Assembly: GCA_041389925.1 (NCBI GenBank)
Contig: JAWKQX010000006.1
Span: 151,837-215,836, forward strand
DNA length: 64,000 nucleotides
Direction: 5' to 3'
Origin: Kofleriaceae bacterium
GTDB lineage: Bacteria > Myxococcota_A > Polyangia > Haliangiales > Haliangiaceae
Shown here one piece after another: positions 37,092 to 51,672 of this stretch. The notes beneath the pieces are model-generated. The model was given only the letters and a program-made list of their open reading frames with translations, searched no databases and had not been told where the DNA came from. Each line of letters opens with the position of its first letter. The first letter of the stretch is position 1. Position numbers and translations under genes: made by a program.

Positions 37092-40000
37092 ATGACGCGC
37101 GACGGCGAGCCCATGGGCGCACAGTCCGAGGAGGCCCGCGCGGAGACGGGGACGGAGGCGGCGGCGGAGACGGTGACGGTGACGGTAGCGGAGACGGAGA
37201 CGGTCGCGGAGACGGAGACGGTCGCGGAGACGGAGACGGTGACCGTGACGGTAGCGGGGGCGGAGACGGAGGCGGGGACGGAGACGGTAGCGGAGACGGA
37301 GACGGTAGCGGAGACGGAGACGGTAGCGGAGACGGAGACGGAGGCGGGGACGGAGACGGTAGCGGAGACGGAGACGGTGACCGTGACGGTAGCGGGGACG
37401 GAAGCGGTAGCGGGGACGGATGCGGTCGCGGATGCGGGAGCGGAGACGGTCGCGGTCGCGGAGGCGGGGACGGAGGCGGTCGCGGAGACGGTCGCGGTCG
37501 CGGAGGCGGGGACGGTCGCGGAGACGGTCGCGGTCGCGGAGACGGTCACGGTCGCGGACACGGGGACGGTCGCGGAGGCGGTCGCGGTCGCGGAGACGGT
37601 CACGGTCGCGGACACGGAGACGGTCGCGGCCACGGTGGACCCACGGGTGCCCTCGGCGCACCGGGCGGTCACCGTCGCCGCGCGAGGTCTGGGCGATCGC
37701 GTCGGCTCCACGGCGCGCGGGCCGATCGCGCACCTCGACACCGTCAACGACAGCGCGCCACGCGCGAACGCCGCGGAGGCTCGCCCCGACTCCGCGCCGC
37801 CGGAGTCGCGCTACGCCGGACGTCGCGAGCTCGGCCGCGGCGGCATGGGGCGCGTGCTGGAGGCCGTGGATCGCCACCTCGGGCGTGTCGTCGCCGTCAA
37901 GGAGTCGTTCGCCACCGACGAAGATGGACGACAGCGCTTCGCCCGAGAGGTCGCGATCACGTCGCGGCTGGAGCACCCGGCCATCGTGCCGCTCTACGAC
38001 GCCGGCACCACCGCCCAGGGCCGGCCGTACTACGTCATGCGCAAGCTCACCGGGCGCGGCCTCGATCAAGTGATGACCGCGGCGACCACCCTCGACGAGC
38101 GCATCGCGCTCTTGCCCGCGCTCCTGACCGTCTGCGACGCGGTCGCCCACGCCCACGCGCGCCGCGTCGTGCACCGCGACATCAAGCCGGGCAACATCTT
38201 GATCGGCGATCACGGCGAGACCATGGTGATCGACTGGGGCCTCGCGAAGGTCATCGGCGAACCCGCCGACGGGCCGGCCGACGCCGCTTCCAAGCCCCAC
38301 GTCCTGCCGCCCGACGCGCCCACCGCGCCGCCGCGCGGCGAGCACCCCCCGCTGCCGGTCGACGAGCTCAAGACCGTCGTCGGCTCGGTGTTCGGCACCC
38401 CGGGCTTCATGTCCCCCGAGCAAGCGCGCGGGGAGCAGCTCGACCTGCGCGGCGACGTCTACGCCCTCGGCGCGACGCTGTATCACCTGCTGGCGGGGCG
38501 GCCGCCGCACGTGGGCAGCTCCGCGACCGAGGTGATCGATCGCGTCCGCGTCGAGCCGCCGCCGCCCTTGCCGGAGGTCTGCCCGGGCGCGCCGGCGGAG
38601 CTCGTCGCCATCGTCGACAAGGCCATGGCGTTCGAGATCTCGGACCGCTACGCCGACGCCTCCGCGCTCGCGGGGGATCTGCGCCGGTTCCTCGCCGGGC
38701 AGCTCGTCGCCGCGCACCGCTACACGCTGTGGCAGCGGCTCCGCCGCGCCGCGCGTCGGCACCGCGCCGCGTTCCTCGTCGCGGGCGGCTCGCTGCTGGT
38801 GGTCGCGACGCTGGCGACCCTCAGCGTCGTCCGCATCATCAGCGAGCGCGATCACGCCGACGCGGCGCGCCGGATCGCGCAGCTCGAGCAGCGGCGCGCG
38901 GAGGAGGCCCGTGACGAGGCGGCCCTCCGCGCGGAGGAGCTGATCGTCGCGCAGGCGCACGGCCTCATCGAGCCGAACCCGACCGCGGCGCTCGCGCTGC
39001 TCAAGCGCCTCGCGCCGGGCTCGTCGGCGTGGCCCAAGGCGCGGATGATCGCGATGGCGGCGCAGGCGGAGGGCATCACCCGCGCCGTGCCGGCGAGCCG
39101 CACGCGCGTGCCCTCGATCTTCGCCATGAACCCGCGCAGCGATACCCTGCTCATCGGCGAGGATCAAGGGCGCATCCGGCTGCTCGACCTGGAGTCGCTC
39201 CGCATCCGCGAGCTGCTCGATGTCGGCGGGCGCGCGTTCGGCTGCTGGGTCAACGGCGGCGCCGCCGTGCTGCTCGCGAACGAGGCGGTCGGCATGGTGC
39301 TCCACGACGTCGCGTCCAAGCAGACGCGCACGGTGCCCATCTCGGCGCCGGTGAGTGCGCTGGAGTGCCAGGGCGGCAAGGGCGCGGCCTACCTCGACAA
39401 GGCCGGCGGCCTCTGGGTGGTGGACTCGGTGCTCGCGCAGGTGCGTCGGGTCGAGGCCGGCCTCGCGGTCGAGCACCTCGCGGTGACCCCGGACGGCGAG
39501 TGGCTGATCGTCGGCGGGCGAGGCGAGGCCGCGATCCTCGATCGCGACGGGGGCGTGCACCGACGCTTCTCCGGGGAGACCCTCCGGGTCCTCACGTCCG
39601 CGGGCGGGCGCGTCGGCATCTTCTTCCGCGATCGCGCGCTGGAGCTCGATCCGAAGAGCGACGCCGCGCCCACGGAGATCCCCTTGCCGAAGTTCCCGCT
39701 GGCGATCTTCTTCGTCGGCGAGAAGCTGCGCGTGCTCAACGGGCAGAACCGCCTGTGGTTCTCCGACGGCACGCTGGATGTGGAGCTGCCCACCACCCCG
39801 CAGGGGAGCGCGCCGCTCGGCGATCGCACCGCCGCGTTCGGCCTCCACGACGGCTCCGTGTGGCTCACCGGCTGGTGGGGCGCGCGCATGCTGCGCACAC
39901 CGGCGACCAGCGCGCTGGTCCGGCTCGCGGGCCGCGCGGGCTCGCCGTGGCTCGCCGCATGGACGACCGAGGGCGTGCTGGTCTGGAACCTCAGCGGCGC

Positions 40001-41036
40001 GATCCCGCGAGCCATCGCGCTGCCCGCGTCCGTGACGCAGGTCCTGTTCGTCGGGGAGCATCGCCTGCTCGCCGCCGGCAACAACGACTGGATGTGCCTC
40101 GATCTCCAGAGCGGCGACCTCACGCAGCTCACCGCGGACCTGCCGTTCTTCGGGAGTCCGGTCGCCGATCTCGAGCGCGGGGATGTGCTGATGATCGACG
40201 TGCTGATCGGCCGGGTGATGTGGCTTCGTTGGGCCTCCAAGCAGCTCGTCAACGCGCCGGGCGAGCGGGTGGGCAGCGCCGCGCTCCTGGCCGATGGCAA
40301 GGTCGCGCTCGGTGCCACGGACGGGCGCCTGCTGATCGTCGATGATCAGCGCCGCAACCAGACCTTCACGCTTCGCCACCCGATCGTTGCGCTCAGCCGC
40401 CTCGGCGCGCACGGCGTGTTCGCCGCGGATCAGGAGGGCGAGGTCCTGGTCGTTGACGCCGCGACCGGAAAGGCGACGCGCGGTTCCCTCGGCGAGGCTC
40501 CGGACGGGCCCGCCACGGACGACGGCGAGGGCGGCGTGGTGCTCTCGGCTGGCGGCCGCCTGCTGCGCTGGCGCGCCGGCACGGTGGAGGAGCTGCTCCG
40601 CCTGGAGCATCCGGTCTCCGCCCTCACCCGCTACGAGCGGCACCTCGCGCTGCTCACCGCGACGGAGCTGTTCACGCTGGACCTCGATGCGCCGCCGCGG
40701 CTCCGGCGCATCTCGGTCGCCGCGAAGGATCAGCAGCTCAGCGACGGCGCGCGCTGGTCGATCGGCACCGGGCCGCGCGGCCTGGCCGACCTGGTGGACA
40801 TCGCCACCGGCGTGCGCTGGACCAAGTCGATGGTCGGCGGCCGCGCGACGTTCGCGGTCTCGCCGCGCGGCGACCACGTCGCGCAGGTGGTGGGACGACA
40901 GGTGGCGCTGTGGACGTACGAGGTGCCCGAGGATCCTGCGGAGCTGCGCGCGTGGCTCGATCGCGCGACCAACGCCGCGGTGGACGACAACCTCGACGTG
41001 GTGTGGACCGCGCCGAGCGTGCCGGCCGCGCCCTAG
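37092..41036 (+). CDS. Ser/Thr protein kinase with N-terminal (E/A/T-V) repeat region and large C-terminal beta-propeller-like domain; true start may be downstream (e.g. GTG about 37633)
   Basis: Hanks kinase motifs: [41 protein letters not shown] after the kinase ([22 protein letters not shown]). The C-terminal about 650 aa carry repeated G/W/D blades. The first about 180 codons are the GTSACS hexanucleotide repeat, in-frame with high GC3. Confidence 0.8.
37141..37636 (+). repeat. period-6 hexanucleotide tandem repeat (gagacg/gtcgcg/gtagcg/gtgacg units) inside the 5' end of the kinase ORF
   Basis: Read directly. About 80 units. The same repeat family occurs at 48105-48340, 49869-49920, 50452-50945 and 51608-51672. 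Confidence 0.85.
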
Positions 41037-41052
41037 GCCCGCGCGACGAGGG

Positions 41053-41907
41053 CTAACTGCTCAGCTTGCGGTACAGCTCGCTGCGGCGATCGCGGAAGAA
41101 GCCCATGCTCGCGCGCACCCGCGCGAGGTGCTCGAGATCCAGCGTCGCCAGCGCGCAGCCGCGCTCGGTGCGCGAGAGCTCCGCGACCTTGTCGCCCCGC
41201 GCGTCGCAGATGAACGAGCTGCCGTAGAACGTGATGGCGCTGCGCCCGACGCCCTCGATGCCGACGCGGTTGGCCGCGACCACGCCGACGGCGTTGGCCA
41301 CCGCGTGGCCGATCATCACGCGCTGCCAGGAGTCGCGGCTGTCCAGGTCGGGCTCCTCGGGCTCGCTGCCGATCGCCGTCGGATAGAGCAGCACGTCCGC
41401 GCCGGCCAGCGCCATCGCGCGCGCGGCCTCGGGGAACCACTGGTCCCAGCAGATGGCCACGCCGAGTCGGCCGAAGCGGGTGGCGAAGGTGCGAAAGCCG
41501 GTGTCCCCCGGGCGGAAGAAGAACTTCTCTTGATAGCCCGGCCCGTCGGGGATGTGGCTCTTGCGGTAGAGGCCGAGGTCGGCGCCGTCGGCGTCGAACA
41601 CCTTGATCGAGTTGTAGTACTCCGGGCCGGCCTTCTCGAAGAACGACACCGGGATCACCACGCCGAGCTCGCGCGCCAGCGCCTGGAAGTGGCGCAGCGT
41701 GGGGTGCCCCTCGGCCTCACCGGCGCGCGCGAAGTCTTCCTCGAGCTGCTCGCGGCAGAAGTAGTGCCCCTCGAACAGCTCCGAGGGCAGGATCACCTGC
41801 GCGCCGCGACCGGCGGCCTCGCGGATCAGCTCGGTGACCCGGGCGACGTTCTGCGCGACGTCGTCGGTGAAGTCGGTCTGGAGCGCGGCGAGCGTGACCT
41901 TGGACAT
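41053..41907 (-). CDS. aguB: N-carbamoylputrescine amidase (nitrilase/CN-hydrolase superfamily)
   Basis: Start MSKVTLAALQTDF (internal ATG 41907). Catalytic E-K-C nitrilase fold (…RKSHIPDGPGYQEKFFF…, VAICWDQWFPE). 284 aa. Confidence 0.85.
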   Translation of the reverse strand: MSKVTLAALQTDFTDDVAQNVARVTELIREAAGRGAQVILPSELFEGHYFCREQLEEDFARAGEAEGHPTLRHFQALARELGVVIPVSFFEKAGPEYYNSIKVFDADGADLGLYRKSHIPDGPGYQEKFFFRPGDTGFRTFATRFGRLGVAICWDQWFPEAARAMALAGADVLLYPTAIGSEPEEPDLDSRDSWQRVMIGHAVANAVGVVAANRVGIEGVGRSAITFYGSSFICDARGDKVAELSRTERGCALATLDLEHLARVRASMGFFRDRRSELYRKLSS

Positions 41908-51552: not shown

Positions 51553-51587
51553 CGGCACGCCAAGGGCGCCTCGGCTGCCGCGGCGGT

Positions 51588-51607
51588 GACTTGCGACCAA
51601 TCGATAG
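51588..51607 (+). mobile_element. solo IS4-family right-end remnant (gacttgcgaccaatcgatag) followed by a hexanucleotide tract
   Basis: Matches the IS right end gacttgtgatcaatcgatag at 18 of 20 positions, in the same orientation relative to the adjoining repeat tract. Confidence 0.5.
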
Positions 51608-51672
51608 CCGTCACGGCCACCGTCACGGTCACGGTCACGGCCACCGTCCCCGTCCCCGTCACGTCCACCGTC
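51608..51672. repeat. GTSACS hexanucleotide tract read in-frame into the SDR gene's upstream ORF
   Basis: ccgtcacggccaccgtcacggtcacggtcacggccaccgtccccgtccccgtcacgtccaccgtc. Confidence 0.75.

Follow-up and report, generated by a model that had tools for sequence, protein, structure and literature searches.

Five tracts of a six-nucleotide repeat lie in a 64,000-nucleotide stretch of DNA from a Kofleriaceae bacterium (contig JAWKQX010000006.1, positions 151,837 to 215,836; hereafter the window), and the question that they raise is whether they are coding sequence joined to the genes beside them or a repeat of another kind that accompanies mobile DNA. An earlier note on this DNA, made from the sequence alone, had described them as repeats of G-N-S-A-C-S that are always in an open reading frame of high GC3 (G+C at third codon positions) and fused in frame to unrelated genes, and had taken them for a mobile or recombinogenic class rather than ordinary coding sequence. 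The explanation favoured here, which on balance is probably right, is that the tracts are a lineage-specific, hypervariable and essentially non-coding hexanucleotide satellite, (C-S-G-N-N-N)n, that is tied to mobile DNA in Kofleriaceae (Polyangia, Myxococcota). Two observations carry it: the arrays are dispersed and fast-evolving and have, in the copies examined, an obligatory polar link to a cassette with a four-helix-bundle gene, and an insertion sequence (IS) inserts into them at one fixed register within the 10-bp target CSG-NNN-CSG-N.

Tandem Repeats Finder (TRF) and an independent scan of the 64 kb found period-6 arrays at 37141-37640, 48105-48340, 49869-49920, 50452-50945 and 51608-51672 only, and five consecutive GNSACS units match 26 times in the window (G+C about 71%) compared with 0.00 times in shuffled sequence. 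The five tracts are therefore where the earlier note had placed them. The repeat that it described is likewise real and only the register needs correction: GNSACS is a CSG-NNN unit displaced by two, and the in-register composition, C (100%)-C/G (88/11%)-G (98%)-Y-S-N, is better given as (C-S-G-N-N-N)n, an invariant CSG triplet followed by three variable bases. The tracts are as follows.

37141-37636, plus strand: tract 1, about 82 hexamer units, G-rich on the plus strand
48105-48340, plus strand: tract 2, left piece of a tract split by an IS, C-rich on the plus strand (CCGTCA/CGGCCA/CCGCCA)
49869-49920, plus strand: tract 3, right piece of the split tract, opening with the second copy of the target duplication
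50452-50672, plus strand: tract 4a (CCGTGG/CCGAGA/CCGTCG/CCGCGA/CCGTGA), 5' of a four-helix-bundle gene of subfamily B and G-rich on the sense strand of that gene
50675-50945, plus strand: tract 4b (CCGTCT/CCGCCA/CCGTCA), 5' of a four-helix-bundle gene of subfamily A and C-rich on the sense strand of that gene
51608-51672, plus strand: tract 5 (CCGTCA/CGGCCA/CGGTCA/CCGTCC), between an IS-type end and the start of a short-chain dehydrogenase/reductase (SDR) gene

The units of tract 1 on the plus strand, GAGACG/GTGACG/GTCGCG/GTAGCG, read CCGTCT/CCGTCA/CCGCGA/CCGCTA on the minus strand. With short units repeated head to tail beyond chance, the arrays qualify as simple-sequence repeats or variable-number tandem repeats (VNTRs). 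Single-strand folds of the tracts are worse than those of shuffles (z = +5.3 and +1.1) and support no hairpin or cruciform; a role of the tracts as hairpin or cruciform formers was rejected on these grounds, and the arrays are structure-poor, strand-asymmetric spacers. A scan of genome contigs for five GNSACS units gave 20 Myxococcota loci among the matches listed, none with a four-helix-bundle gene or the IS, the pattern being a permissive one that also matched many short coding stretches of Streptomyces and further high-GC taxa.

The clearest tie between the arrays and mobile DNA is an IS that interrupts one of them, together with a solitary IS-type end beside another.

48341-49868, plus strand: IS4-family (Tn5-like) IS of 1528 bp, with its transposase gene at 48430-49857
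51588-51607, plus strand: solo IS-type right end, GACTTGCGACCAATCGATAG, abutting tract 5 in the register seen in full IS copies

The transposase combines Tnp_DNA_bind (PF14706, the Tn5-type N-terminal domain) with DDE_Tnp_1 (PF01609) and scores 281.7 bits against NCBIfam NF033590, for which the cut-off is 160. The element ends in the terminal inverted repeats CTATCGAT(N4)CACAAGT and is flanked by an exact 10-bp target duplication, CCGCCTCCGT, so that tracts 2 and 3 are a single tract split by the IS. A DDE transposase, inverted repeats, a duplication in the 9-12-bp range and multiple identical copies are all present, and the element is thus a normal member of the IS4 family with an unusual target. 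An identical transposase is encoded on 14 metagenome contigs, where both flanks of the IS are arrays of the same kind in nearly every case and in either orientation; even the single non-array flank, in L123, shows a pattern resembling CGN-NNN. The 15 distinct end junctions, which cover the IS of the window, the solo end (window and L001), a second IS-like end in L125, and L122, L124-L127 and L129, all read outward from the element as CSG-NNN-CSG or as N-CGG-NNN-CGG. A single 10-bp staggered cut at CSG-NNN-CSG-N predicts this.

The solo end agrees with the IS end at 14 of 15 specified positions, the background maximum being 12, and the same end is also present in L001, followed there by a different tract. 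A second type of IS-related end, TTATCGATTGGTCACAAGTCGGAACCCGGCTTTCC, abuts a hexamer array in the identical register (L125, 1634-1720, and the right flank of L124), from which it follows that at least two related elements target the arrays; the solo end at 51588-51607 is nearer to this type. The G+C content falls to 0.66 at 48001-50000, compared with about 0.71-0.75 around it, and the dip coincides with the IS, which suggests that the IS is of recent or foreign origin.

The second kind of mobile DNA at the arrays is a cassette built around a small gene, of which two copies stand back to back in the window.

49949-50272, minus strand: subfamily-B four-helix-bundle gene, 107 aa, TIGR02436/PF05635
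50262-50430, minus strand: subfamily-B hairpin, long and imperfect, its 3' arm holding the Shine-Dalgarno sequence and ATG of the gene
50990-51215, plus strand: subfamily-A hairpin region, directly 5' of the ribosome-binding site (RBS), z = -6.9
51229-51552, plus strand: subfamily-A four-helix-bundle gene, 107 aa, TIGR02436/PF05635, dispersed and multi-copy

Many bacteria hold abundant, multi-copy TIGR02436/PF05635 genes, which also occur in 23S rRNA intervening sequences and, as Avd, in diversity-generating retroelements (DGRs); we know of no account of their function outside DGRs or of the mechanism by which they spread. The two proteins of the window are members of this family, with 54.4 and 43.7 bits against PF05635 (cut-off 33.8) and 51.8 and 46.2 bits against TIGR02436 (cut-off 24). 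For the subfamily-A protein 515 homologues reach E <= 1e-8, the best 120 of which are 75-97% identical and mostly on contigs of less than 2 kb. One homologue cluster contains at least seven NCBI accessions, all from Kofleriaceae and, judging from their proximity as accessions, from one metagenome-assembled genome (MAG), and an identical 106-aa homologue, P0139, is found in at least six different gene neighbourhoods. An exact look-up of the subfamily-B protein, P0122 and P0242 matched no record.

The cassette loci that were read comprise the P0139 neighbourhoods and 23 more from JGI metagenomes. In all 19 copies with enough upstream sequence (about 16 independent loci) a tandem array ends 250-370 nt before the ATG. 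The arrays of 17 of these 19 pass a strict CSG-N3 criterion, at least seven of eight in-phase hexamers starting with CSG, which covers 1.1% of background sequence and 0 nt in five of six unrelated myxobacterial loci; the remaining two are irregular arrays (one of period 20, the other TTCCGG/TTTCCGG). The polarity of the array depends on the subfamily, with CCG on the sense strand of the gene in all subfamily-A copies listed and the opposite polarity for subfamily B, in the window (tract 4a) as in L142; the subfamily-B gene of L142 (3374-3742) has matching architecture and a G-rich period-13 array at the same place. Tract 4 is accordingly two back-to-back arrays, one for each of the two divergent cassettes, which explains its two halves. 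The linker that follows the array carries the semi-conserved motif TCGNCGGCGAG. The clustering of the tracts with IS ends and four-helix-bundle genes, to which the earlier note had drawn attention, is thereby borne out by the in-register IS and by the 5' array of every cassette copy. Subfamily-A and subfamily-B genes form convergent pairs in L142 (3001-3742) and L146 (3001-3784) and a divergent pair in the window, and the two subfamilies seem to co-locate.

Between linker and gene lies a hairpin. The subfamily-B hairpin of the window folds at -121.8 kcal/mol (z = -10.9), and none of 200 shuffles folds as well. An alignment of 17 copies (among L137-L163) gives a hairpin of about 220 nt after the array with 49 pairs, 12 of them with compensatory changes, and in its outer stem CCTCCGTGATTCGCCCC pairs with GGGGCGAATCAC..GGAGG, so that the Shine-Dalgarno sequence is predicted to be sequestered. 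The cassette thus consists of an array, a short linker, a conserved hairpin of about 220 nt that would sequester the Shine-Dalgarno sequence, and a TIGR02436 gene. The hairpin may keep read-through transcripts from being translated or serve as an RNase III site. Rfam has no family for the hairpins or the tracts, at gathering thresholds or at permissive E-values, and gave no match in the window.

The fixed place of the array bears directly on the main rival explanation, according to which the arrays are a pre-existing, independent satellite on which cassettes and IS both home in, the array being no part of the cassette. This is possible but unlikely. It gains from the evident targeting of arrays by the IS and from the existence of arrays with no cassette or IS nearby (tract 1, L087, and L136 at 3553-3693). 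Random insertion into an existing array, however, predicts arrays on both sides of the cassette and in either polarity, whereas each array has a set polarity with respect to the gene, the distance from its end to TCGNCGGCGAG is roughly constant, and the P0139-type copies that were read all have a 5' array and, by eye and without TRF on the 3' flanks, none on the 3' side. Several points weigh against the satellite explanation as favoured here, and the first two are also what the rival would expect. Tracts 2, 3, 4a, 4b and 5 are all C-rich, with CCG, on the plus strand, which equally fits one ancestral array split by successive insertions, three in number, and an array is also present 3' of the cassette in the copies of the window, L001 and L159. 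The link of arrays with cassette and IS was sampled from contigs that carry a cassette or an IS rather than from the whole source genome. Chimeras can arise in metagenome contigs that span an IS of 1.5 kb, and it is the window copy alone that proves the target duplication. Tracts 1 and 4 remain in phase despite a unit divergence of roughly 30%, as coding constraint would also give, and a promoter scan found nothing.

The association of an array with one end of a cassette could also be of enzymatic origin, a polymerase or reverse transcriptase with an Avd-like protein copying the array at the 5' end much as non-LTR (long terminal repeat) retrotransposons acquire simple-repeat tails. The obligatory polar association, the individual unit mix of each copy and unit spectra that appear specific to each genome would all suit such a process, and PF05635 is cited as the family of the DGR accessory proteins Avd (PMC10053308). 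It is nevertheless improbable, as no reverse-transcriptase Pfam family was present among the called genes within 3 kb of 10 copies (the scan of the window covered 36-53 kb), the nearest solved structures by sequence are 2GSC and, weakly, 2RLD, with Avd not among them, no template copy was found, and slippage alone accounts for the length variation between L144 and L146. A template and variable repeat pair of the DGR type was likewise not seen: no array has a second copy, and the arrays differ in length and unit. The cassette was rejected as a DGR on the grounds of no reverse transcriptase within 3 kb of the 10 copies, no template copy and varying array lengths, and as a 23S rRNA intervening sequence on the grounds that the window holds no rRNA and the open reading frame (ORF) is outside the stem. 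It does not have the two terminal inverted repeats matching IS ends of miniature inverted-repeat transposable elements (MITEs) either; a right-end-like sequence alone occurs, in the lineage of the window and L001 only, and in a search of cassette ends for IS-type inverted repeats the 3' end in the window alone rose above background, the other copies being within it. A 16-nt string before the array of L138 resembles the left inverted repeat of the IS, but it needs a gap and is a single case.

The arrays change quickly. At the orthologous site of L144 and L146 identity is 93.8% for the response-regulator gene and 95.6% for the cassette, and the array interval measures 337 versus 123 nt, an approximately three-fold difference in length; a copy-number difference at an orthologous locus is a mark of a VNTR. 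As far as the IS-type end, identity between the window and L001 is 97.7%, and beyond it the arrays are entirely different, although L001 may be a paralogous copy. The arrays change for the most part by 6 or a multiple of 6. The unit spectra, CCGTCW/CCGCCA/CCGCGA in the genome of the window and the IS flanks and CCGCTG/CCGCTT/CCGGTG in other Kofleriaceae, look genome-specific.

The neighbourhood of tract 2 has changed as well.

46435-48012, minus strand: FGGY kinase gene, with its start at 48012 and tract 2 upstream

Orthologues of the FGGY gene (76-78% identity; L170-L173) lack an array and are preceded, at a gap of 56 nt, by an upstream gene of 414 aa, and the window contains no homologue of that 414-aa gene. 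The PLP-decarboxylase gene downstream of FGGY is conserved in relatives; synteny thus holds downstream of FGGY and ends exactly at the complex of arrays, IS and cassettes, which places the complex at a synteny breakpoint. The order over 48-52 kb is FGGY (minus strand), tract 2, IS, tract 3, subfamily-B gene (minus strand), hairpin, tract 4a, tract 4b, hairpin, subfamily-A gene, solo end, tract 5 and SDR gene, so that an IS, a solo IS end and two divergent cassettes with their own arrays are nested together at this breakpoint. The proposal that the tracts are mobile or recombinogenic rather than ordinary coding sequence survives in part: those of 48-52 kb are tied to mobile DNA and to a breakpoint, and an orthologous array site differs about three-fold in length between L144 and L146, but the tracts themselves give no sign of being a mobile unit. 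Short-read contigs stop at arrays (L001, L174 and many of less than 2 kb), and L174 ends exactly at the edge of tract 2. Such ends are what would be seen if the tracts were mis-assembled or collapsed low-complexity reads. That this explains the tracts is highly improbable given that arrays of the same kind with consistent junctions occur in independent ENA, Logan, JGI and NCBI assemblies, and that the target duplication of the IS is exact.

Whether the tracts are translated is the next question, the alternative to a satellite being that all of them encode Val-Thr, Glu-Thr or Ala-Thr (VT/ET/AT) dipeptide repeats, including an ORF made up almost entirely of tract 4, termed ORF-X, and N-terminal extensions of a Ser/Thr kinase and of the SDR. 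The openness of the frames does not discriminate, in contrast to what had been claimed: four to five of the six frames of each tract are stop-free, and a frame with a GC3 of 0.93-1.00 is found on both strands in tracts 1, 2, 4 and 5. An open frame of high GC3 is therefore a property of the unit and no evidence of coding. Tracts 1 and 4 keep a single phase over about 80 units each (79 in tract 1), as coding sequence would, whereas tract 2 has a 4-nt phase shift near 48305 and tract 3 one at about 49889. The arrays linked to cassettes have periods of 13, 19, 20 and 38 and mixtures of 6- and 7-mers, which excludes a conserved reading frame for them. A coding domain would have a period that is a multiple of three and no frame shifts, and the arrays do not show this, apart from the phase that tracts 1 and 4 keep. 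Such a domain would also be kept in orthologues, but the orthologues of the kinase have no ETV repeat and those of FGGY no tract upstream.

Placement between a credible start and conserved coding sequence is found for tract 1 and fails for tracts 2, 3 and 5; for tract 4 and ORF-X the sole start available derives from a hairpin. The reading of tract 5 through into the SDR gene, as had been supposed, does not hold, as it is only from residue 43 of the long ORF that the Pfam domain of the SDR begins, the start candidates (ATG at 51679 and 51692, followed by VVVTGATG) are 3' of the tract, and the IS-type end at 51588-51607 lies inside the supposed N-terminal extension. With a normal SDR start after tract 5 there is no gene fusion. 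The RBS and ATG of ORF-X, which had been taken for a duplicate of those of the four-helix-bundle gene, belong to an inverted repeat of 170 nt: they form its left arm, and its right arm holds the minus-strand RBS and ATG of that gene. A gene duplication was rejected, the start being an arm of the strongly folding subfamily-B hairpin (z = -10.9); for ORF-X, Pfam gives no match and NCBIfam only one far below threshold. In-frame fusion to unrelated genes is thus not a rule, the SDR fusion and ORF-X being artefacts of stop-free composition and of the hairpin. A divergent ORF starting at GGAGACCATG in the linker of P0139-type copies was also rejected, since the frame of the array differs between copies and L138 has a TAG. 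For the tracts as a whole ordinary coding is thus quite improbable; it stands for tract 1, plausibly the only one of the five that is translated.

37092-41036, plus strand: Ser/Thr kinase ORF, 1314 aa, with its Pkinase domain from residue 244

Tract 1 occupies codons 17-182 of this ORF as (E/V/A/G)(T/A) repeats with no stop in the ORF frame. The start of the kinase, MTRDGEP (37092), resembles the starts of orthologues (MERREPSP, MDREPPSP and MTRESSPEE), ten of which were compared (56-59% identity). Their orthology is confirmed by the upstream Fer4/Pyr_redox gene that they have in common, as in L132, L134 and L136. None of the ten has the ETV repeat, which also means that repeat N-termini of conserved length in orthologues, named in the earlier note as a sign of ordinary low-complexity domains, were not seen. 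What the orthologues do have is a start that follows the pattern M-[TED]-R-[ED]..P, close behind the upstream gene, and the conserved motif VP[AP]HRAVTV, the two separated by 0-190 residues of unrelated low-complexity sequence, which includes DDPRH-type repeats (N-termini of P0002 and P0003) and EAATVA repeats of 24 nt (L132, 9800-10000). The segment is a recurrent site of repeat growth, with unrelated expansions at the same position. Tract 1 is bracketed exactly by MTRDGEP and the conserved kinase motif directly after it, and the simplest explanation is therefore an in-frame expansion in an already hypervariable, probably disordered segment. Tract 1 is plausibly translated as a low-complexity expansion of the kinase N-terminus, and the GTG at 37635 may be an alternative start. 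The earlier description of a tract as the first 180 or so kinase codons was accordingly right as to frame, but tract 1 looks like an ordinary low-complexity expansion and not like a member of a mobile class. Hexamer tracts also encode TG/TE, ETAT, GD and TG linkers within multi-domain Myxococcota proteins (L040, L086, L026 and L097), so that coding instances of such repeats are ordinary in the phylum. The contig of one kinase orthologue, L136, carries an intergenic (GGGATC/GGATTC)n array at 3553-3693, with a terminator-like hairpin on one side and a convergent gene's end on the other, and hexamer arrays with other units thus exist in related genomes.

It is proposed, in line with the satellite explanation, that an array travels with the 5' end of the cassette or gets seeded there and would then evolve in place, slippage or unequal exchange changing its length and units. 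It would act as a harmless, structure-poor spacer that offers a safe site for IS insertion and could promote rearrangement. The hairpin could silence translation of read-through transcripts, and a precedent exists in IS10, in which read-through transcripts are subject to fold-back inhibition. Since the unit is 6 nt long and most of its frames are free of stops, the reading frame is kept when an array lies within a coding segment that is disordered and tolerant, and this is the likely state of tract 1 in the variable N-terminus of the kinase. A bolder version, which is rather doubtful, would make array, hairpin and four-helix-bundle gene an undescribed kind of mobile cassette of Kofleriaceae whose array is made or remade at mobilisation, for example by reiterative copying with an Avd-like protein, and to whose array the Tn5-like IS has evolved recognition.

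Neither the arrays nor the architecture of the cassette nor the target of the IS was found described in searches of the literature, but each part has relatives. The short tandemly repeated repetitive (STRR) heptanucleotide sequences of heterocystous cyanobacteria are intergenic, dispersed and lineage-specific and change rapidly in copy number. The arrays share with these and with VNTRs the short head-to-tail intergenic units, the many loci, the restriction to a lineage and the rapid copy-number change, and differ from STRR sequences in the 6-nt unit with its invariant CSG, the polar link to a cassette and the in-register use as an IS target. IS1397 and ISKpn1, of the IS3 family, insert into the palindromes of repetitive extragenic palindromic (REP) sequences and bacterial interspersed mosaic elements (BIMEs). 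The present IS is like them in that a dispersed non-coding repeat is nearly its only target and the position within the repeat is fixed, and unlike them in that its target is a tandem hexamer array and not a palindrome and that it is IS4/Tn5-like. The PE_PGRS and PPE-MPTR proteins of mycobacteria are conserved families with defined N-terminal domains. Like the tracts, their GC-rich short tandem repeats were first noticed as DNA and have open frames of high GC3, but here tract 1 alone lies in a real gene and the cassette arrays have no conserved frame. With 23S rRNA intervening sequences the cassette has in common the PF05635 protein family and a long stem as possible RNase III substrate; unlike them, it lies outside rRNA genes, has its ORF 3' of the hairpin and has a hexamer array attached. 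The nearest analogue found is a MITE of Porphyromonas gingivalis that contains a minisatellite, where the tandem array is likewise physically part of a small multi-copy mobile element; that element, as described, carries a pair of terminal inverted repeats and lacks a gene (PMC4596501), whereas the cassette has one IS-type end in one sublineage, a four-helix-bundle gene and a conserved hairpin. The novelty is rated as that of a variant which combines a satellite, a repeat-targeting IS and a selfish small-gene cassette, each of a known kind.

The occurrence of a polar array, a hairpin predicted to sequester the Shine-Dalgarno sequence and a gene at many independent loci amounts to a testable model of a selfish cassette, and a mobile cassette, if real, would give the first mechanistic handle on the spread of TIGR02436/PF05635 genes. 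Insertion of an IS4/Tn5-type element in register into CSG-N3-CSG-N would, if true, clearly exemplify a tandem repeat that is targeted in a sequence-specific way, and a transposase that targets arrays informs on target choice and is possibly a tool. In practical terms the arrays break short-read assemblies, and as they create long spurious ORFs of high GC3 and false N-terminal extensions, annotators of high-GC myxobacterial genomes should mask them. Other tandem repeats in the window have periods that are multiples of three, namely a 12-nt unit repeated six times at 1446-1522, GGC/AGC-rich units of 18 and 36 nt at 22698-22851, and units of 15, 30 and 78 nt rich in TAC-GGC-CAG at 31148-31343, and are probably coding low-complexity segments.

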